The position numbers and the translations under genes are program-made. The notes under the pieces were generated by a model, which had not been told where the DNA came from, made no database searches, and saw only the letters and a list, made by a program, of their open reading frames with translations. Source: an uncultured cyanobacterium (GTDB lineage: Bacteria > Cyanobacteriota > Cyanobacteriia > CAKZMO01). From it: DNA of 64,000 nt. Of this stretch, positions 39,715 to 51,263 are shown piece after piece; the stretch's first letter is position 1; every line of letters starts with the position of its first letter. Location of the stretch: NCBI GenBank assembly GCA_963719515.1, contig CAVRCJ010000011.1:352001-416000 (forward strand), read 5' to 3'.

Positions 39715-40203
39715 TTAGGCTCTCACATAAAGCGACAGCTCGTTCCATAAGGCCGGAAACTGAGTCCGAATGGGGTCTGCTTTGGCGATCGCCATATCTC
39801 GGTAGTCAAACCCGGGGGCGACGGCCTCACCCAAGAGGCCATAGTCTCCCGATTCTAGGACGGCGGCTTTCCAGTAGCCTCCGGGGACCAGCAGCTGAGG
39901 CACCTCGCCCTGGGCGATGTCCAAGCCAAGCTTGATTTTGCGCAGGGTACCCTCGGGGCTAACCAGGATATAGGTGACGGGCGATCCGGCATGAAAGTAG
40001 TGCATGATGTCGGAGCGGTTTTGGTGCAGATGGTCGATGGGGCGATCGTCGGTGAGCAGGTAGTAGATGGAGGTCATCACCGCCCGGGTCGCTCCCTCTC
40101 GCGCTGTTGTCAGTTCGTCCGTAGCGCGGTAGGTCTCTGAAAAGTAGCCGCCTTCGACATGTTCAACGAGCGATAATGCGTCAATCCAGCGCTGTTTATC
40201 CAT
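39715..40203 (-). CDS. Cupin, DUF985 (Cupin_5) family
   Basis: HVEGGYFSET, TSIYYLL, EAVAPGFDYRD. Confidence 0.92.
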   Translation of the reverse strand: MDKQRWIDALSLVEHVEGGYFSETYRATDELTTAREGATRAVMTSIYYLLTDDRPIDHLHQNRSDIMHYFHAGSPVTYILVSPEGTLRKIKLGLDIAQGEVPQLLVPGGYWKAAVLESGDYGLLGEAVAPGFDYRDMAIAKADPIRTQFPALWNELSLYVRA

Positions 40204-40634
40204 AGATTCAACTCAAGCTATTTTGAAGTCCTACTTGAGTACAGTAGACTCAATCGAAGAGTAGCCTGTGACCGCAACGGCTCGCAAGACGGCCAGTGAA
40301 ATAGTAAAGGAGAGAGGGATGGGATTTATAGAACGGGCGACAACAGCTGCACTGGGCATTGCCCTTGCCGCTGCCGGCAGCCTTGGCGTTAGCAGCACTG
40401 CCTCAGCCCAAAACCAGGATTTCAGCCAGGTCGAAATTGAGACGGTTCCGGTGGCGGAAGACATCTATATGCTGCTGGGAGAAGGGGGGAATATTGGCGT
40501 GCTGGTGGGAGAAGACGGCGTCTTTTTAACTATTAGACAGGAAGTCCCGCGCTGTATGCGCAGCATCAGCGTCGGGATGAAAGGCGCGTGAGCCGTAGGC
40601 GAACAATTAAGGGGTAGTGCGTCACCCCTTAAAA

Positions 40635-40643
40635 TGCTATAAT
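40635..40643 (+). promoter_or_regulatory. Extended -10 promoter TGCTATAAT for tnpB
   Basis: TGn-TATAAT ends 6 nt before the GTG at 40650. Confidence 0.6.
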
Positions 40644-40649
40644 CGAGGT

Positions 40650-41906
40650 GTGTTGACCTTGAACTACTCCTACCGAATTTATCCGTCTCTTGAGCAGGAA
40701 GCCCGCATGGTCTGTTGGCTTAAGATTTGTCGTGGCGTCTACAACTATGCGCTGCGACGAACGAAAGGACTGGATAAAGTCGAGAGGCTGTGCGGCTAAT
40801 GCCTGCTCGCTTCAGTCGGAGTACATCATGGCGGCAGATGCGCCATATCCTGACTACTACAAGCAGCAAAATGCGCTGACTGCGGCTAAGAAGGTTTTTC
40901 CTCACATGAAAGACGTGCAGTCTCAGGTGCTTCAAGAGCCTATTCGCAGGGTAGAGGCAGCATTTGCTGCGAGGAAGGAGAGAGGTCACGGTTTCCCCCG
41001 CTTCAAAAAGTTTGGGCAGTACCGCTCGTTCCTCTTTCCGCAGTTCAAGGAAAACCCGGTGATGGGTAGCCAAATCAAGTTGCCTAAGCTGGGCTCTATG
41101 CGCATCGTTCTGCACCGCCCTATCCTTGATGGGTTTGTGGTAAAGACGGTACGCATCATCAAAAAGCATTCGGGGTGGTACACTACCCGATGCATTAAAG
41201 CCGATGTCAATGTGCCTGAGGCTGTTCCCGTGGGCAGAGTATCGGCATTGACGTCGGGCTCGAGTACTTCCTGTCCACTTCCAACGGCTTGCAGGTAGAG
41301 CGCCCGCGCTTTTTCGGTAAGCTGCACCGCAAGCTTAAATTGCTGCAACGCAGACTGAAGAATAAGCAGCGGGGCTCGAATAACTGCGCCAAGCTGATTG
41401 GAAGAATTGGACGGGTACATGAGCAGATAGCAGCATGTCGCCTTGACTGGCAGTTCAAGCTGGCCCACAAGCTTTGTGACCAGGCCCAGATCATCTTCGT
41501 GGAAGACCTTGACTTTCGCATCATGGCGAAAGGGATGCTGGGTAAACACACACTCGATGCTGGTCTGGGGCAATTCGTGAACCAGGTCTTGCCGTGGGTG
41601 TGCTTCAAGCGCGGTGTCTATTACGAAAAGGTTGACGCCTACGGCACCTCTCAGGAATGTCCTGATTGCGGCGCTGCGGTCAAAAAGTCCATAGGCGATC
41701 GCGTTCATCGGTGTCACGAGTGTGGGTCGCTCAAACCGAGGGATATCGCCGCTGCTCAAGTCATCAACGCCCGTGGAATTTCGGGTATTCAAATTGCCTG
41801 TGGAGCCGAGGTAGCGGGGATGTGGGAAGCCATATCTAGCCAACTGGCTGCGAAGCAGGAAGCTCATCGGGTGACCGATGAAGCCCGCGCTCTATCCGTA
41901 GGATGA
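40650..41906 (+). pseudogene. tnpB: RNA-guided endonuclease TnpB with two frameshifts
   Basis: YRIYP..YNYALR HTH; GFPRFKK; GIDVG (RuvC I), VEDL (RuvC II), CPDC..CHEC zinc finger, RDIAAA (RuvC III); +1 indel near 40758, -1 indel near 41238. Confidence 0.93.
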
Positions 41907-41943
41907 GTGTCGGGAGTATTCACTAGACGATCAGTTTGCGCCG
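41796..41943 (+). ncRNA. Predicted TnpB omegaRNA (right-end scaffold plus flanking guide)
   Basis: Known architecture of IS200/IS605 right ends; GCCTG...CAGGAAGC segments and terminal hairpin; guide would begin at 41924; 5' boundary approximate. Confidence 0.6.
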
Positions 41944-42654
41944 CTGACCGAGAAGATTCTGGCGGCAGTTGAAGAAGTTAGCGACGAGCCTGTCCGCTTT
42001 TTGATCAACACCCACTGGCACTTTGACCATACGGGCGGCAACGAGAATCTGGGCAACGCGGGCGTCATGATTGTGGCCCATGACGAAGTTTATACCCGCA
42101 TGAGCATGGACCAGTTTATTGACGCGTTCCAAATGGAGGTTCCAGCATCTCCCCCGGCCGCACTCCCCAGCTTGACCTACAGCGACACCATAACCTTCCA
42201 TCTCAACGGCCAGACGGTTCACGCGTTTCACGTGGCCCCGGCTCATACCGACGGTGATACGGTGATTCACTTCCCCGACGCCGATGTCATTCACGCCGGG
42301 GACATCTACTTCAACGGCCTCTATCCGTTTATCGACACCTCTAGCGGCGGCTCCCTCATCGGTATGGTTCGTGGGGCAGAACAGATTTTGGCGCTGGCTG
42401 GAGATGAGACCCAGATTATTCCCGGTCATGGCCCTTTGTCTAATCGCGCAGAGCTAGAGGCCTATCGGCAGATGCTGGGGAATGTGCGAGTTCGCACCGA
42501 GCGGGCTATAGCCCAAGGCCTTACTCTAGAGGAGTTCCTCGCCTCAGACCCGACAGCCGACTATGACGACGCCTGGGGGCAAGGCTTTCTCACCCCTGAG
42601 CAGTTTCTCACGATTGTCTATCAAGATCTCGCTGAGTAATGCTGCAGGGCATTA

Positions 42655-42771
42655 GAGCCGAGTCGCGCCCTGCAGCACTGGTAAGCTGAGTAGCGCCCTG
42701 CGGCACTGGTGAGCCGAGTCGCGCCCTACGGCACTGGTAAGCTGAGTCGCGCCCTGCGGCGCTAGTGATAA
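42655..42771. repeat. 28-bp tandem repeat, about 4 copies
   Basis: GAGTCGCGCCCTGCRGCACTGGT(AAGCT/GAGCC) units starting at 42660, 42688, 42716, 42744. Confidence 0.9.
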
Positions 42772-43094
42772 GAGCGCATCCGGCCCATCATTGCGCGAGA
42801 GCCCACAATGCAGGCCATTGCTAGCCCCAAAATGGGCACGATGGAAAACTCGCGTGATCGGGTCTGAGGAGGCTTTTTGGCGATGGGCTGGGTGAGCGGC
42901 GTGTAAATTTGCTTGGGCTCGATAACCAGAACTGGGGCGTCGCGGTGACGCGCCAGCATAACGACGTCTGGGTGCAGCAGCAGCGCTAACCCTAGCCAGA
43001 AAAGCAGCATGGTGAAAAACCAGGCGCTAGTCCACAGGGCTAGCGGATGGGCCAGCATCCAACGGACTGCTAGGGGCGATTTAGAGTGATGCAT
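42762..43094 (-). CDS. Hypothetical membrane protein
   Basis: 110 aa with two hydrophobic segments. Confidence 0.6.
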   Translation of the reverse strand: MHHSKSPLAVRWMLAHPLALWTSAWFFTMLLFWLGLALLLHPDVVMLARHRDAPVLVIEPKQIYTPLTQPIAKKPPQTRSREFSIVPILGLAMACIVGSRAMMGRMRSYH

Positions 43095-44371: not shown

Positions 44372-44947
44372 CTATGTTTGGCCGCAGTCCTCAGCACTTT
44401 TGCCGGAGTTCAAGCCTCCAATCAGCGAGCGAATGATGACGCAGCGATAGGTATTAGAGTTTTGGGGCGTAACCGTCAGGTAAATGGGCAAGTCGCTGAT
44501 ATCAATTCCCCGGTCGAGATCGAGGCCACCGTTAGCGCTAAACCAAATCTCCGTGATTTCTTCCCCAGCGCCGTTTTGCGCCGTAAAAACGAGCGAATTG
44601 GCATCAAAATCACCCTCGGCTAGCGGAACTCCGTCAGCCGAGCCATCTCCCGGATAGTTGATGGTGTTGTCTGTCGGGTCGAACTCAATAGCGCGATTGC
44701 TGCGGAGACGCCGCGCTTCGGATTGAGTTTGCCGGACGCCCTGCAAAATCTGGTCGCTGGCGCGCTTGGCCTTTTGACGATTAGCAAAAGTCCCCCAGCC
44801 TGGAGCCGCGATCGCGGCTAAAACGCTGACGATGGTAACTACAATTAATAGCTCAAATAACGTGAATCCTGAGTCGCTTTGCGAGCGCATTCTAGCCACA
44901 GGTTGTCTCCTGGAAATTGGGTCATCGGTAGGGGTAGACTGAAGCAC
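44372..44947 (-). CDS. Type IV prepilin-like protein (FimT/GspH-like; HpsD position)
   Basis: GFTLFELLIVVTIVSVLAAIAAP; alternative ATG start at 44890. Confidence 0.88.
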   Translation of the reverse strand: MLQSTPTDDPISRRQPVARMRSQSDSGFTLFELLIVVTIVSVLAAIAAPGWGTFANRQKAKRASDQILQGVRQTQSEARRLRSNRAIEFDPTDNTINYPGDGSADGVPLAEGDFDANSLVFTAQNGAGEEITEIWFSANGGLDLDRGIDISDLPIYLTVTPQNSNTYRCVIIRSLIGGLNSGKSAEDCGQT

Positions 44948-45895
44948 TCAACTCGGCGTTTTATCGAGCGTACCTCGGATAAAGACCCGAGTCTCAATAG
45001 GCGGCAAGAAGGTATCTTCTCTCATCAGGCCTGAGCGCTGCACTGCATTACCCCGCAAAGACAAAACGACCTCTTGGTTTCCAGCGGTTGTGCCAGGTTC
45101 GCTTATGCAGGCATAGAAACTTCGAGGAACAGCGCCGCTAGGAGTCAGCTGGTAGGTGGAGCCTGTGACTGTTGGACAAGACGGATCAACCCCCGCCGCC
45201 AAACTACCATTCCCATCGTCTACAAAGTCAGCAAGCAGCTCTGGCTCAGAAAAAGCTGGCGTTGAGCCATCAGGGGGCCAGTTTTTAAAGTTCGCTGAAC
45301 CGCTTTCAAACGGACTTACGTAGCCAGTAGCAGCAGCGTCAGCAATTGACATGTCTGAGCGAAAAATACCGGCCTCTCCGACGATAGCGGTGAGCGGATT
45401 ATCGGGATCATCGGGGCCATCATCGCGAGCCCCCAGAGAATAGACCACAAGAGAATAGGAGCTGCCGGCGAGGCAAGGGAGATTAGTTGGCGGGGGGTCA
45501 GCTGTGCAAGCGGTTGACTGAACCGCTTGAGGAATGGGCTGAAGCCGCCAGAATGCTAAGATTGGCGTCATTCCCGCTGGCAGATTGAGATTCCAGCCCC
45601 CCGAGCCCTCACAGTCTGCCGCTGTACCATCAAGGCAGTCAGCGTCATAAGCAAATACAGCCTGCTTGAGTTCTGACTCCATATACGTTAGCGCTAGCTG
45701 CATGTCGCGCTGAGTTTCTGTGCGATCGCTCTCTCGCTGATCGGTTTTGAGAACCTCAATTGCTAGGTACATCAGCCCCGAGACAATCCCTGATGCCAAG
45801 ATGATAGTGACCAGGAGTTCAATTAATGTGAACCCTTTTGAGGCGCTCTTAGAGGCGCGAGGCAGATGTCGTAGGAGCAGCGTGACGGCAGACAT
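44948..45895 (-). CDS. Type IV prepilin-like protein (PilW-like; HpsC position)
   Basis: GFTLIELLV prepilin motif; PILAFW and LRGNA segments. Confidence 0.85.
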   Translation of the reverse strand: MSAVTLLLRHLPRASKSASKGFTLIELLVTIILASGIVSGLMYLAIEVLKTDQRESDRTETQRDMQLALTYMESELKQAVFAYDADCLDGTAADCEGSGGWNLNLPAGMTPILAFWRLQPIPQAVQSTACTADPPPTNLPCLAGSSYSLVVYSLGARDDGPDDPDNPLTAIVGEAGIFRSDMSIADAAATGYVSPFESGSANFKNWPPDGSTPAFSEPELLADFVDDGNGSLAAGVDPSCPTVTGSTYQLTPSGAVPRSFYACISEPGTTAGNQEVVLSLRGNAVQRSGLMREDTFLPPIETRVFIRGTLDKTPS

Positions 45896-45988
45896 AAGTT
45901 AAAACCCTAAAGCGGCGGCACAGAGAAACGGCCTGAAAGACGGGAGACAAACCATGAGTCGCTTCGAAGACCAGCATGAAAAATCGAT

Positions 45989-46720
45989 CTAGGTACATTC
46001 TCCAAGATCGAGATATTGACAGACAGAAAGGTCGCGATCGCTCCACACAAAGTCGGAGTAAAGAACGGCCAAAGGTCGCCTTTGCTGGTTGCCTAAGCCT
46101 GTGGTGTACCGCAGCGAGGCCTCTGTCGTCTCAAGTTCGCCGAGATTAGCGGCGGCGGAAACCGCATAGACCCGAACCCCCATACGAAACTCATTGAGCT
46201 TATCAGGTTCCGCGAGATTGGCGGTCCCTTCATCTCTGAAGGTTTGCATCAAAAAATCTGCTTCGCAATCGCCGTCTATATCCACGGGAAGCGCGAACTG
46301 AGCGCCGGGAAGCGCCGTTCCAGAAAACGCATCGCAGCTAGAATTGGTAGATTGAAGCTCATCGTGAAGGTCCGTAGGAGCGGCGGCGGCGGCGATATCA
46401 TCCCCCACGTCGGGCGGTAGAACCTGACCCTGCAAGAGGTTACCATCGCCATCTACTCCTGTGACAGACTGGCGCTTCTTTTCGATCAGAAGCCGCACCC
46501 TGTCGACCTCCCCCTGGGCGACCTTCAGGGCCTGCTCAGCGCGTCGATTTTGTACCCGCGTTGCCGCAGAGATAAACAGTGGTGGAGTAATCAGCAGGCC
46601 TGTTACCCCAACAACGGTGATAGCGACCAAGCATTCAACCAGGGTCAACCCCCGATCACCAGTCTTGACGGCGATCGCATTAGGGCGATTCTTGTTCCAG
46701 TGGCGATACGGCGGACGCAT
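45989..46720 (-). CDS. Type IV prepilin-like protein (PilV-like; HpsB position)
   Basis: GLTLVECLVAI, ATRVQNRRAEQAL. Confidence 0.85.
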   Translation of the reverse strand: MRPPYRHWNKNRPNAIAVKTGDRGLTLVECLVAITVVGVTGLLITPPLFISAATRVQNRRAEQALKVAQGEVDRVRLLIEKKRQSVTGVDGDGNLLQGQVLPPDVGDDIAAAAAPTDLHDELQSTNSSCDAFSGTALPGAQFALPVDIDGDCEADFLMQTFRDEGTANLAEPDKLNEFRMGVRVYAVSAAANLGELETTEASLRYTTGLGNQQRRPLAVLYSDFVWSDRDLSVCQYLDLGECT

Positions 46721-46772
46721 AATCTTCTCCAGCTAGCGGCTCATAACGGTTAGAAAAAGACGAGAGCTATCC

Positions 46773-49700
46773 TCATTCAGGAGGGCAAAAACTGTCGTTG
46801 CCTGCAACTTGGCGGCAAAGCTGCGCAATGTAAGGATCGTCCAGCGTTGGTTCGCTGTAGAACTCGCTTCGAGCGGGCGTTGTCGATGCAAATCGACTTG
46901 CAATCGGAGCGGCTGGCACGTACTGAAGCGCGACATCGTATCCCCAGAGGCGATTGGGCGGATTGTAATAGGGAAATCTGTCTCTAGGATCTGTCGGCAC
47001 AGCTTCCGGTTCCCAGACCTCTTGGTCAAAGGGAGCGGTGGCAGCCGCGCTAAAGTTCAGCTGATAGAAGGTGCCGGACATAGAGAGGTCAACGTCATCC
47101 CAGTCTTCAATGAAGCGAGGGAAATTGTGTAGGCCGCCATAGGGCTGATTTAGGCGAGACGGCACGATCCCGCTAATCACGCTGAGGTTGACAATCTGCT
47201 CAGCAGCAGGGGTTATACCATTCTCTTCTTGAGCAAAATAGTTTCCGGTGTAGGGAGTGTCAGCAGCATCGACTGGGTTACCGTTCCTGTTGATGAAGAT
47301 CGGAGACTCCGAGTCGAAAGAGTTCTGACGTCGCCAGTCACCCGGATTGGTTCGAGGTCGGTTTTGGTTGAGGTAAGAGGTGTGATCGCCTGCGCAACCA
47401 TATCGACCCATCGCGTCAGCACCTAAAGTTACCGTGTTGTTTTCACCTGCTGTGAGAAAGCCGTCTTCAACGCTGCCATCGCAAAAGTCTGACGACAGAA
47501 TAATAACGGCATCAGCGAGAACTTCCGTTGGCCGCCAGTCATCATTGCGGGGATTAGCAAACCTGTTGTCTGGGGTTGTACGGGTATAGAAGTTGTCCCA
47601 GGTTGGGTTTAGCCTTTGGGTAAACTCTTCCAGCTGCTCAATCACACCCGGATCGTCCACGGTGGGTCCACGGTGCAGGTTGAAGGCCCCTCGGATGTAG
47701 ACGCTGTTATCTGCAATAAACGATACGCCTCGACCGAGGTCACCAGTTCTCTTCAGCGTAGCGCCGTTGGTTAGGCGAAAGCCATAAGAACGTCGGTCGG
47801 GATCGGAAACAAAATCGACCGCCTTCATGCTGAATCCCTTGTCAAGGAGCAGCGGATCGGTCGAGGCCGTCAGCGCGCTCCCATCGGCGTGGGTTTGGCA
47901 GGTTGCTGGATTGCCTTCTAGAGTGAGGTAGTCGGCACAAAGGGGAGCACCGGCAGCTGCCGGTCGAACAATAGCGTCTTCCCGTACGGCGTCCTCACGA
48001 AACGCAAAGACAATGCCGCTGAGCGGAAGCCACTGCTCGTTAGGATCAGCAAAGAAAGAGGCCTCTCTCAACAGATCCAGGTCAATATCGAGGGTACGCA
48101 CGCTCATCCGCTCGCGCCCGTCGTAAGGTGCGGCATCCTTGAAGGGTACTGGCCAAGTTTCAGAACCAAGCGACCCTACACCGCAGGCCTCATCAATACA
48201 GCGAATCAGCGCCTGTTCGTTAGAGTTAGGATTAACGGGCGCTACATCAGGCGCTGCCGCCTCAAACGGACCCGCGGCGATCGGGGTAACCCAGCCCGAT
48301 CGCAGGCTCTCCTGTGGCGCTATAGCGACGGTGTCTACGTTGTTGAGCAGATCAGCTGTAGGAGACCCGGCAGCAACAGGAGTCGTCCTCTGGTAAAACA
48401 GTCCTCCGTTTTGAGCGCTGATGTATGCATCGACCGCGCCATCTCGAGTCTCATCGGCTGTTTCGGCCAAAGCAGTGATGTCACCCGGCGGAAATAGCGC
48501 TCGCAGAACAGGATACTTTGGTCCATCAGCACAGAGCATTTCCATGCTTGCGTTGACGTAGGGCGTGCAAGCGTATGTGCTGGGCCCTGCAGCAAAGCCG
48601 TTGAGGCGATCGCGATTCACCTGCTCTTTGTTGGCAATCACGCGAGCGATCGCCAGCATGTTATTGGTAACGCCCGTCGCTGCGTCAGAGTCAAGCCCAT
48701 TCCACTGCTCTAGCACAGTGATGAAGGCTTCTGCAGGGTCGCCCGCCGCGAGGGTCACTCCTGTTGGGTTGACGGCGGTGAGAGCTGATAGGCGAGTAGC
48801 CAAAGTGGTGATGGCGCCGTCTTCGACGCTGCCGCCATCACCGTACTCGGTATTGACCAAGAGCGGACTTGCATCTGCTCCAACCGGATTAAACCGGTTC
48901 AGGTAATCGATGTTGTAGGCTAACATTCCCAAAGTGCAGGTAGCCGTATGTAGCGTCGTCTTGTCGGCAGGGCTCAGGGCAGCGTATGTCGTACCCCCGT
49001 CAAGCAGAGCGGTGACGTTACGGAGCACTGAAAAATCTCCCCACATCGACATCAACGGGTAGGGATGAACAACATCGTCTTGAATAGGCGTGAAAGAGGG
49101 TGCTCCGCCATTGGGGTCACCCGCAAACTGAGCTAGATTCCGCAGCGCGATGCCTAAAGGCTCTACGCTGCCCACGACGGTGGCAAAGTTTGCACCGTAG
49201 GGAAAATCAAACTCCCACCCGTTGGTGCCACGACCCGTAAAGAAGTCAGTAAGAATCGCCTGTGATACTATGGCGCTGCGAGGTTCAATGATTTGCAGCG
49301 CCTCAAAGGTAGCGCTATCTTGCAGCGTCTTTGCCGTACCGGGGTGAACCGTCGTCGCCAGGCAAACCCGAGGAAGGTCGCCATCGCCGCCAGCGCTAGT
49401 GGCGTGATAAATTGCCGTCGCCTGGACAGCCGCCAAATTGTCGGCAAGCGTCCGGCGCTGACGGGTTTCGTGGCACCCCAAGTTACTCGTCGGGGTGCAT
49501 TGCTCAAAGGGATAGAGAGGCTCAGCAGTTGGACCAGTGGGCGTCCATCCGTAAGGGTCGCCAAGCTCTAGCCGCTGACCCACAACAATCCGCATGCCCT
49601 CATTTCTAGCCCGGCGTTCCCAGTAGCCATCAAGACCCACGTTTGTATCACCTGTCAAACCTGGGTTTATGAGCTGCAGATCCGCCGTAGGTGACCCAAC

Positions 49701-51263
49701 TGCCGTGACCTCAACACCTGAGTAGCGGGGCTGCGGCCCCTCTCGGTTGTCTGCGCGATAGGAGTCTCCAACCAGCGGCTGGTCTTCAGACCGGCTGAGA
49801 ATACGCTCCTCAATCTCCGGCGTCGCGTCATCCGTGTCCCAAGCTGGATTGCGAAAGGCCCCCGCATCCTCGACATTACGAGATACCGAAACGCCCTCTG
49901 CCAAAAGCCTAATGGGATCTAAGGCAAAGTCAGCTTTGTCTGGCGCGTCGTTTGCCAGAGAGTCAGTTTCTTCGTTCAGCTCGGGAGGATTCACCCGTGG
50001 ATTTTCTTCTCCAAAGATGTGAACCAAGGACGTCTGCGCAAAGTCTGCGTCAACGACACGACCGTTGATGACCTGTCCCTGGAACGCAATCCCACCGTTG
50101 TCAGCTAGCTCAGGCTCACCCAGCGTGATCTCAGAGTCAGATTTAGAGGTGTTTAGGCAAGAGTTTGTGGAGCTGATGAGAAAGGCTCTAAAAGGTCTCG
50201 ACCCGTCTCCCCGGTTACCCTGACCTACGATAAGGTTGCCTTCAGTGTGCATTGCACCATTCCAGCGAAACTGGGGACCGGGAAAGACCTCAAGGTCATT
50301 ACGGAACCAAGCTCCCCACTTGTTCCCCTGCTCGACCTGCCGGTCCTGCTGAAATTCTAGAGTTGCGATCGTCGCGATCGCGCTGGCAGTCTCTAAGGTG
50401 CCGTCGATGTTCACCGCGCCCGGAATAGCGATCGCATTCACCTGAAAGTTCTTACTCGGGTTGGTCCCGGCAACCTTGAACCATCCCTCCTCAACGGCAC
50501 CTGCCGTTCGATTGGCGCAGGCGTTGCTAGATGCCGCTGTCGAACTGAGAGGACCATTCTTGACCTGTAGACTCTCTGCCCTGTTTGCAACGGCTACATC
50601 GGTTCGATCGGATAGATCGTTAATATCGTTGGGCGTCTGAAAGACGAGTGAATAGGCAATCACGGTATCGGGTCCGTCGACACCATCGGTGTCAACCGGA
50701 AACTGCCAGGCATTGTCGTTTGTTGCTGGATTGCCGTCTAGGTCGATTCGAGTTTCATCCTCGAATTCATAAGGGCTAACCTGCGTAACCCCATCCTCTA
50801 AAGTAGGCGTAAAAGGCTCAACGGTCAGAGTGCCGCGAGGTTGGCCGTCATTGGCCATCATGCCAACCAGAAAAGTTTCCCCTGGAGTACCGCTGGGGAG
50901 TCTGTCGTCTTGGCTAAAAAGATATTCCAGCTTGGCCTTCGCCCGGTCAATGGCTGGGGTCGCCGCGTTGTAGATCACCTGCTGCTGGCGATCGCCAATA
51001 GCCTGGGTTGTCCGGGTAAAGGTGCGGAGCGAAATCGAGCCCACCGTCAGCGTTACCACCAGCAGCAAAAGCACCACCGTCGGCAAAATGAAGCCGCTCT
51101 GGGCGCTGGGCTGAGCAAGCCGTCTCGGCAGCACGAACAAGAGCCGAAGCAGCAGGCGGGCGATCGCCCCACCGACTCTAGAAAAGACATTGCCCCGAGC
51201 CGTTTGTCCGGACCGACGGGGTGAGCCCTGCCGGGGGGTGTGACGACGCCTACGAATTGACAT
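46773..51263 (-). CDS. hpsA: Hormogonium polysaccharide protein HpsA (large PilX-like protein)
   Basis: 1496 aa; GFILPTVVLLLLVV, NAATPAIDRAKAK, NKWGAWFRNDLE, GGLHNFPRFIEDW, RLWGYDVAL; followed by three pseudopilins. Confidence 0.82.
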   Translation of the reverse strand: MSIRRRRHTPRQGSPRRSGQTARGNVFSRVGGAIARLLLRLLFVLPRRLAQPSAQSGFILPTVVLLLLVVTLTVGSISLRTFTRTTQAIGDRQQQVIYNAATPAIDRAKAKLEYLFSQDDRLPSGTPGETFLVGMMANDGQPRGTLTVEPFTPTLEDGVTQVSPYEFEDETRIDLDGNPATNDNAWQFPVDTDGVDGPDTVIAYSLVFQTPNDINDLSDRTDVAVANRAESLQVKNGPLSSTAASSNACANRTAGAVEEGWFKVAGTNPSKNFQVNAIAIPGAVNIDGTLETASAIATIATLEFQQDRQVEQGNKWGAWFRNDLEVFPGPQFRWNGAMHTEGNLIVGQGNRGDGSRPFRAFLISSTNSCLNTSKSDSEITLGEPELADNGGIAFQGQVINGRVVDADFAQTSLVHIFGEENPRVNPPELNEETDSLANDAPDKADFALDPIRLLAEGVSVSRNVEDAGAFRNPAWDTDDATPEIEERILSRSEDQPLVGDSYRADNREGPQPRYSGVEVTAVGSPTADLQLINPGLTGDTNVGLDGYWERRARNEGMRIVVGQRLELGDPYGWTPTGPTAEPLYPFEQCTPTSNLGCHETRQRRTLADNLAAVQATAIYHATSAGGDGDLPRVCLATTVHPGTAKTLQDSATFEALQIIEPRSAIVSQAILTDFFTGRGTNGWEFDFPYGANFATVVGSVEPLGIALRNLAQFAGDPNGGAPSFTPIQDDVVHPYPLMSMWGDFSVLRNVTALLDGGTTYAALSPADKTTLHTATCTLGMLAYNIDYLNRFNPVGADASPLLVNTEYGDGGSVEDGAITTLATRLSALTAVNPTGVTLAAGDPAEAFITVLEQWNGLDSDAATGVTNNMLAIARVIANKEQVNRDRLNGFAAGPSTYACTPYVNASMEMLCADGPKYPVLRALFPPGDITALAETADETRDGAVDAYISAQNGGLFYQRTTPVAAGSPTADLLNNVDTVAIAPQESLRSGWVTPIAAGPFEAAAPDVAPVNPNSNEQALIRCIDEACGVGSLGSETWPVPFKDAAPYDGRERMSVRTLDIDLDLLREASFFADPNEQWLPLSGIVFAFREDAVREDAIVRPAAAGAPLCADYLTLEGNPATCQTHADGSALTASTDPLLLDKGFSMKAVDFVSDPDRRSYGFRLTNGATLKRTGDLGRGVSFIADNSVYIRGAFNLHRGPTVDDPGVIEQLEEFTQRLNPTWDNFYTRTTPDNRFANPRNDDWRPTEVLADAVIILSSDFCDGSVEDGFLTAGENNTVTLGADAMGRYGCAGDHTSYLNQNRPRTNPGDWRRQNSFDSESPIFINRNGNPVDAADTPYTGNYFAQEENGITPAAEQIVNLSVISGIVPSRLNQPYGGLHNFPRFIEDWDDVDLSMSGTFYQLNFSAAATAPFDQEVWEPEAVPTDPRDRFPYYNPPNRLWGYDVALQYVPAAPIASRFASTTPARSEFYSEPTLDDPYIAQLCRQVAGNDSFCPPE

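Follow-up and report, generated by a model that had tools for sequence, protein, structure and literature searches.

In the window, by which we mean the whole stretch of 64,000 nucleotides analysed, a gene for an MBL-fold metallohydrolase is interrupted by a mobile element of the IS200/IS605 type. The features of the locus, numbered by position in the window, are:

40319..40529, + strand: 5' part of the MBL-fold metallohydrolase gene, 70 codons and 1 nt, delimited by comparison with a congener.
40525..40529, + strand: TTTAA target site (TnpA cleavage site CL and predicted TnpB TAM); TTAA precedes 15 of 15 left ends with the guide AAGT.
40530..41923, + strand, that of the host gene: tnpB-only IS200/IS605 element, non-autonomous, 1,394 nt, 83-93% identical to 11 aligned sister copies.
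40542..40545, + strand: left-end DNA guide AAGT, which covaries with the flank and lies at the foot of the hairpin as reported for IS608 (PMC3201880).
40545..40577, + strand: left-end subterminal hairpin, intact (z -2.6 for 40530-40600); tnpA-bearing elements have the same stem.
40635..40643, + strand: extended -10-like motif TGCTATAAT upstream of tnpB, a possible promoter of its own judged by its letters.
40650..41906, + strand: tnpB pseudogene with frameshifts of +1 near 40757 and -1 near 41230.
40867..40869, + strand: codon for Gln73, by profile alignment the equivalent of Ser56 of ISDra2 TnpB, reported to contact TAM position -1 (PMC10097598); Gln marks the TTAA type.
41774..41923, + strand: predicted omega-RNA scaffold overlapping the 3' end of tnpB, with conserved pairs and an approximate 5' limit.
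41880..41923, + strand: right end with guide GAAG, hairpin and terminal TCAC, placed by sister and family right ends.
41924..41943, + strand: predicted guide, by the family rule the host sequence to the right of the element.
41924..42639, + strand: 3' part of the hydrolase gene, containing HWHFDH and, by homologue comparison, no stop or frameshift.

A preliminary description of the locus had claimed that deletion of 40530-41923 restores an MBL-fold reading frame with an HWHFDH motif, and that neither half of the host gene contains a stop or a frameshift. Both claims are correct. The segments 40319-40529 and 41924-42639 join to an ORF of 927 nt (308 codons, 308 aa) without internal stop, which reads GVFLIDDQFAPL across the joint, has HWHFDH at 42013-42030, is clean in both halves when compared with its homologues, and is 79% identical in amino acids over its whole length to the uninterrupted gene of a congener (G004). 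Deletions with shifted ends are equally in frame at this locus, so the reading frame by itself cannot fix the ends of the element. These were set independently by the sister copies, which have TTAA or TTAG before their first base and finish in GAGTATTCAC, and they are supported by the residue at the joint, which is Ile in 104 and Val in 14 of 118 hydrolase homologues. The left flank TTTAA and the right end TTCAC that had been proposed are supported.

The host protein matches Pfam Lactamase_B (PF00753) above the cut-off and shares the HxHxDH motif of the MBL-fold metallohydrolases. Among the NCBIfam matches listed it stays below the cut-off of every family, all metallo-beta-lactamase models included, and an assignment to the class B metallo-beta-lactamases, the resistance enzymes, was rejected (62 bits against a cut-off of 100 for the core model). 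The first ~30 residues read like a signal peptide (basic N-region, hydrophobic core, A-S-A). The homologues are ~303 aa long and carry an N-terminal extension, and the relatives of the protein are cyanobacterial. Directly 3' of the stop codon lies a tandem repeat of ~28 nt (window 42655-42770), of which 56 nt are missing in a contig of one sediment run (X4), likely a copy-number variant. Further along the window, at 44372-51263 on the - strand, successive genes whose products have prepilin-like N-termini lie next to one for a 1,496-aa protein; by inspection this looks like a minor-pilin cluster.

The element has the anatomy of the IS200/IS605 group: subterminal hairpins with 4-base guides are present at both ends, and it is inserted 3' of a fixed AT-rich motif without target duplication. 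As the preliminary description had it, tnpA is absent and tnpB is broken, by two frameshifts; what remains is the tnpB-only (IS1341-type) form of the group. The arrangement resembles that of IS608 from Helicobacter pylori, in which four-base guides 5' of the hairpins are reported to match the cleavage sites (PMC3201880; here AAGT/TTAA and GAAG/TCAC), whereas the hairpin sequence and the target differ and tnpA is lacking in the present copy. In the hairpin of the right end a private C-to-T change at 41908 creates a G-T pair, found in 1 of 114 right ends of the family, and as DNA this hairpin has -8.8 kcal/mol with the G-T pair against -12.1 without it; the change is harmless as RNA and may weaken the hairpin for TnpA. 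A consensus promoter scan of the + strand called nothing, the TGCTATAAT motif included. A long open frame runs antisense over tnpB (- strand, window 40986-41867, 293 codons), and one of 425 codons is found in a sister copy (L127:285-1562, - strand); both are probably shadow frames.

The pieces of the tnpB pseudogene match HTH_OrfB_IS605, OrfB_IS605, Cas12f1-like_TNB and guided_TnpB, the last above its cut-off for the C-terminal piece. The two frameshifts leave this copy no intact ORF with the RuvC catalytic residues, and its private substitutions number 17, of which 7 are synonymous and 10 non-synonymous. The best structural match is TnpB of ISDra2 from Deinococcus radiodurans (8h1j; Z 23.8, rmsd 5.9, 340 aligned), a match which speaks for the fold only, as the structure model has a pLDDT of 68.8 with residues 37-64 below 50 and the fold search gave no residue pairs. 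The two proteins are ~24% identical, and the elements differ in target (TTTAA here, TTGAT in ISDra2) and in the lack of tnpA here. A single-sequence alignment to ISDra2 TnpB missed the residues before 84; the profile alignment covered them and aligned the TAM-reading helix, with Y52, S56, K76 and Q80 falling on Y69, Q73, S91 and Q95.

At the 3' end of tnpB, 17 of 29 predicted pairs of the omega-RNA scaffold show two-sided changes among 11 sequences, and the right end is by this comparative evidence a conserved, structured omega-RNA-like fold. Many sisters (e.g. L127:1493-1642) have a 24-nt expansion in the loop of the right-end hairpin; the stem is kept and the loops vary. That TTTAA may be the TAM for TnpB of this element type is supported indirectly by the covariation of residue 73 with the flank, described below. 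When the whole genome was searched at five stringencies for other TTA[AG]-plus-seed matches to the predicted guide 41924-41943, none was found.

The genome holds many relatives of the element, with 81 TnpB-domain and 14 Y1-transposase matches. A scan with the hairpin pattern gave 107 left and 114 right ends, which form 103 pairs, mostly gene-less minis of 380-460 nt. In the IS608 arrangement the fourth base of the guide takes part in pairing. Here the guide follows the flank: AAGT stands with TTAA at 15 of 15 left ends, AAGC with TTAG at 89 of 89 and CAGC with a TAG-ending flank at 3 of 3, under a pattern which restricted the guides and flanks that could be found without tying the one to the other. 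Four gene-less elements of 422 nt (C11:290360, C10:332124, C10:325086 and C13:184535) combine this left end and TTTAA flanks with another right end, and at C6:143686-143750 there is a near-palindrome of ~65 nt whose two left-end-like halves lie on opposite strands.

The preliminary description had suggested that tnpA and intact tnpB genes with the same end hairpins be looked for in the genome. Three elements of 1.8 kb carry tnpA with HUH and Tyr motifs and share the hairpins of the present element; all three are of the TTTAG type, and a search by length among the 15 AAGT left ends gave no autonomous TTTAA-type element. In six sister copies tnpB is open over 425-449 codons; four of the six are of the TTTAA type, and one of these four is changed at a conserved column. 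The factors which would be needed in trans for excision and surveillance are thus plausibly encoded in the genome. A similar population is described for ISGst1-5 of Geobacillus stearothermophilus (Meers, bioRxiv 10.1101/2023.03.14.532601): many tnpB-only copies and gene-less minis share their ends with a few tnpA elements, the DNA guide co-varies with the target motif, the right flank serves as guide and the donor joint is scarless. The present case differs in that tnpB of this copy is frameshifted, that it is known from sequence, and that two target types (TTAA and TTAG) occur within one tnpB clade of 87-97% identity.

Other genes are split by the family as well. An ABC-transporter gene is interrupted by a gene-less element of 392 nt (C3:185815-186206) 59 codons from its end, with clean halves. 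At C14:174266-175684 a sister element with a broken tnpB splits, on the opposite strand and 20 codons from the end, a gene which by inspection is probably that of an ECF sigma factor; it adjoins a gene for an RskA-type anti-sigma factor, and both sigma halves are clean. Restoration of an ORF upon deletion of the element was rejected as a mark of a special site: with a threshold of at least 150 codons after deletion it was seen for 10 of 103 elements and for 41 of 600 controls with mismatched flanks, which is near chance. Of the 103 occupied sites, 6 fall within a restorable ORF of 200 or more codons, and a crude ORF mask holds 45% of the TTTAA and 52% of the TTTAG sites of the genome, a comparison whose two sides use slightly unlike criteria and which overlooks genes decayed since the insertion. 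Genes are depleted of the family, and genic insertions look purged, as is expected if insertions are knockouts.

The hydrolase gene is accessory. It is present in 15 of 301 genomes of the class and 3 of 17 of the family, and no paralogue was found in this genome. Four of the 14 other copies in the class are broken (one stop, two internal deletions and one truncation), and the copy of a congener (G003) is also broken. The insertion site is uninterrupted in all of the best 80 GTDB relatives, a set biased to whole genes, and reads TTTAA in 2 of these 80; the same insertion was not found in the GTDB relatives, the congener G004 or the class genomes.

Four sediment runs of one study contain the stretch and were examined as contigs; no RNA run is among those listed as containing it, which is silent on expression. 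The filled right junction is bridged without a difference in two of the four (41878-42047 in run X1, 41876-42211 in run X2), so the insertion is not an assembly artefact; no bridging contig for the left junction is among the matches listed. The empty joint 40529/41924 was not observed among the four joints listed for these runs, the contigs having a depth of 5-7 and dropping rare variants, so that rare empty alleles could escape. Loose ends at 41926 were considered as an empty allele and discarded, as they come from another organism (19 differences and 4 gaps in 134 nt). The exact right-flank pattern gave 18 matches in the JGI metagenomes, none from this species (17 distant homologues of 35-53% identity and 1 unmatched). 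Runs X1 and X2 also contain a second strain, 93-97% identical over window 40132-40437 and 42018-42981, whose contigs cover the flanks, outside the insertion site. At 42018-42254, where this strain is ~93% identical, 19 of 20 differences could be placed and give 17 synonymous against 1 non-synonymous codon difference, which indicates purifying selection on the hydrolase gene for most of the divergence of the strains.

The element and its host gene have decayed to different extents. Besides its two frameshifts, both private and shared by none of the sisters in which they were sought, tnpB has 9-10 private amino-acid changes, where nine close full-length sisters have 0-4 private non-synonymous changes. 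The host ORF deviates at none of the 131 columns that are conserved in 90% of the 118 homologues and has no indel; it has 5 residues unseen in the homologues, which themselves have a median of 1 and a mean of 2.4. Had the element decayed in place neutrally, a host gene so clean would be expected with a probability of ~0.007, or 0.07 if only three of the changes are counted as decay. A clean host with a decayed tnpB means either that the copy arrived already dead or that the host gene is still selected. The preliminary description had taken the clean halves to suggest a recent insertion or continued selection. The asymmetry between tnpB and host gene speaks in its favour, and the recent arrival of a dead copy is the part we retain, whereas continued selection is not favoured: since the hydrolase gene can be dispensed with and the data show no empty allele, the pattern is best explained by a copy that moved in when already dead.

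The reading which we regard as probable is that a decayed tnpB-only IS200/IS605 copy interrupts an accessory MBL-fold gene as a passive knockout, and not as a selected switch. TnpA from another element would have bound the end hairpins and pasted the copy 3' of a TTTAA chosen through the left-end DNA guide AAGT. The copy most likely came recently and already decayed, which would be why the host halves are still clean, and it would persist because the hydrolase gene is dispensable. Rare excision by TnpA acting in trans could still occur and would leave the gene exactly as it was before. The empty allele would in turn be cut by intact Gln73 sister TnpBs carrying the omega-RNA of this locus, so that the site would tend to be filled again from another copy of the chromosome, and such surveillance would bias the site to OFF, as at every family copy with intact ends. 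We presume that the host chromosome is multi-copy, which would strengthen the drive back to OFF. Such a return to OFF would amount to selfish retention and not to switching controlled by the host. For related systems it is reported that TnpA in trans excises without a scar and that TnpB cuts the donor joint, upon which recombination restores the element (Meers, bioRxiv 10.1101/2023.03.14.532601), and that purified TnpB can process supplied RNA (PMC10278001).

An improbable alternative, which keeps some weight, is that the copy is an old fixed relic, inserted with a working tnpB, decayed in place and now poorly mobile because of the G-T pair in its right end, with a host gene that stayed clean by chance. 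The signs of decay are all unique to this copy, the right-end change (1 of 114 ends) among them, and the five host residues unseen in 118 homologues would also fit an old insertion. It is the 0 of 131 changed columns and the lack of indels in the host gene which speak against such an age, at the probabilities of ~0.007 to 0.07 given above.

The preliminary description had gone further and proposed a special, RNA-guarded ON/OFF switch, in which trans TnpA would make ON cells, trans TnpB would police them and selection on the ON cells would keep the host halves intact. We think this very unlikely. Candidate trans TnpA and TTTAA-type TnpB genes are indeed in the genome, the host halves are cleaner than tnpB, and the 17 synonymous to 1 non-synonymous codons of the second strain count against a knockout; moreover, excision of ISDra2 with TnpA in trans is reported to restore a split gene at 2e-3, with a roughly tenfold increase upon UV (Pasternak, PMC2806898). 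Yet scarless exit and a flank-derived guide are general IS200/IS605 traits and thus no sign of a special switch, and other genes are split in the same way. The hydrolase gene belongs to the accessory set and is often lost, the low-depth contigs and the JGI pattern scan show no empty allele, and the insertion was found in no other genome searched (the biased set of the best 80 GTDB relatives, and G004). Without restoration by TnpB, excision would also remove the element permanently, and the states would therefore not cycle under host control. Among the papers listed in a literature search none dealt with IS605 phase variation.

We give hardly any credence to IStron-like masking, with the element spliced from the host mRNA and the gene still expressed: the orientation of the element with the host gene, the exon-like exact rejoining and the clean halves would suit it, but the 120 nt from the left end to tnpB are too little for a group I core, no Rfam intron or other RNA reaches the gathering score in the window or, within 40300-42200, an E of at most 5, group I splicing uses U and G where here the 5' flank closes with A and the element with C, and the sister copies share the same layout. 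In IStrons (described in bioRxiv 10.1101/2023.11.20.567912) a TnpB element likewise lies in a gene whose halves rejoin exactly; in contrast to these, no group I intron is present here and hence no RNA-level rescue.

The locus itself carries little weight: here the mobile family most frequent in the genome has likely knocked out an enzyme that the cell can do without. Of possibly wider bearing is the covariation of target type and TnpB sequence in the clade to which the element belongs. Among 13 copies of the clade in this genome (one, missed by the pattern, was added by hand) residues 69-74 are YYKQQN in the 8 flanked by TTAA and YY[DA]QKR in the 5 flanked by TTAG, and residue 73 (Gln or Lys) tracks left-end guide and flank in 13 of 13. 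A comparison of 7 TTAA with 4 TTAG copies, leaving out one deleted and one divergent copy, gave 44 fixed columns, 21 at 40535-40632 (the left end) and 23 at 40851-40948 (the TAM-reading helices), and none elsewhere. Between these two islands the present copy carries, by eye, a patch of the TTAG type. In the ISDra2 structure Ser56, on which residue 73 falls in the profile alignment, is reported to contact TAM base -1, while Lys76 reads G and Gln80 reads A (PMC10097598).

The association of residue 73 with left-end guide and flank extends to other cyanobacterial genomes. From 69 outside loci, 24 with the family hairpin and 20 with a callable boundary, Gln73 was found in 12 (11 TTAA, 1 TTAC) and Lys73 in 8 (all TTAG), so that 19 of 20 agree; of the four uncalled loci two look spurious and two are Gln loci with the flanks TTCAG and CTTGA by eye, one possibly a further exception. 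In a tree of residues 110-385 (32 rows, no mixture model) residue 73 is not clustered, with 9 changes against a shuffled mean of 10.4, and it agrees with the flank in 7 of 7 independent pairs (p 0.016). Across 19 outside loci the two types are told apart only by columns 73 and 97 and, at the C-terminal edge, 391 and 395. The left-end guide and the codon for residue 73 are 320 nt apart, so the swapping of one old module could account for part of this pattern, and real TAMs are reported to be relaxed in some cases (PMC11043419, PMC13639567).

On balance we lean to the view that the clade flips repeatedly between TTAA and TTAG through a matched last base of the guide (AAGT or AAGC) and TnpB residue 73 (Gln or Lys), selection holding guide base and residue in register as recombination exchanges the DNA that separates and surrounds them. 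The guide base would be read by TnpA through base pairing, and residue 73 would read TAM base -1. TnpA and TnpB have been described as reading one motif through unlike chemistries, and their co-evolution has been proposed (PMC11043419; bioRxiv 10.1101/2023.03.14.532601). In the available part of a review (PMC13639567) engineering of the TAM is described at K76 and Q80 only, and the accessible part of a TldR preprint (10.64898/2026.09.22.753285) concerns other residues; a literature search, with subscription papers (e.g. Xiang et al. 2024) and supplements outside its scope, found no report of a Gln/Lys to A/G rule. If the view is true, the family would contain a natural one-residue code which couples the specificities of transposase and nuclease, and a ready rule to retarget TnpB; since natural elements that are almost the same in sequence differ in a single guide base and in the residue contacting TAM base -1, the coupling is testable by a single swap.
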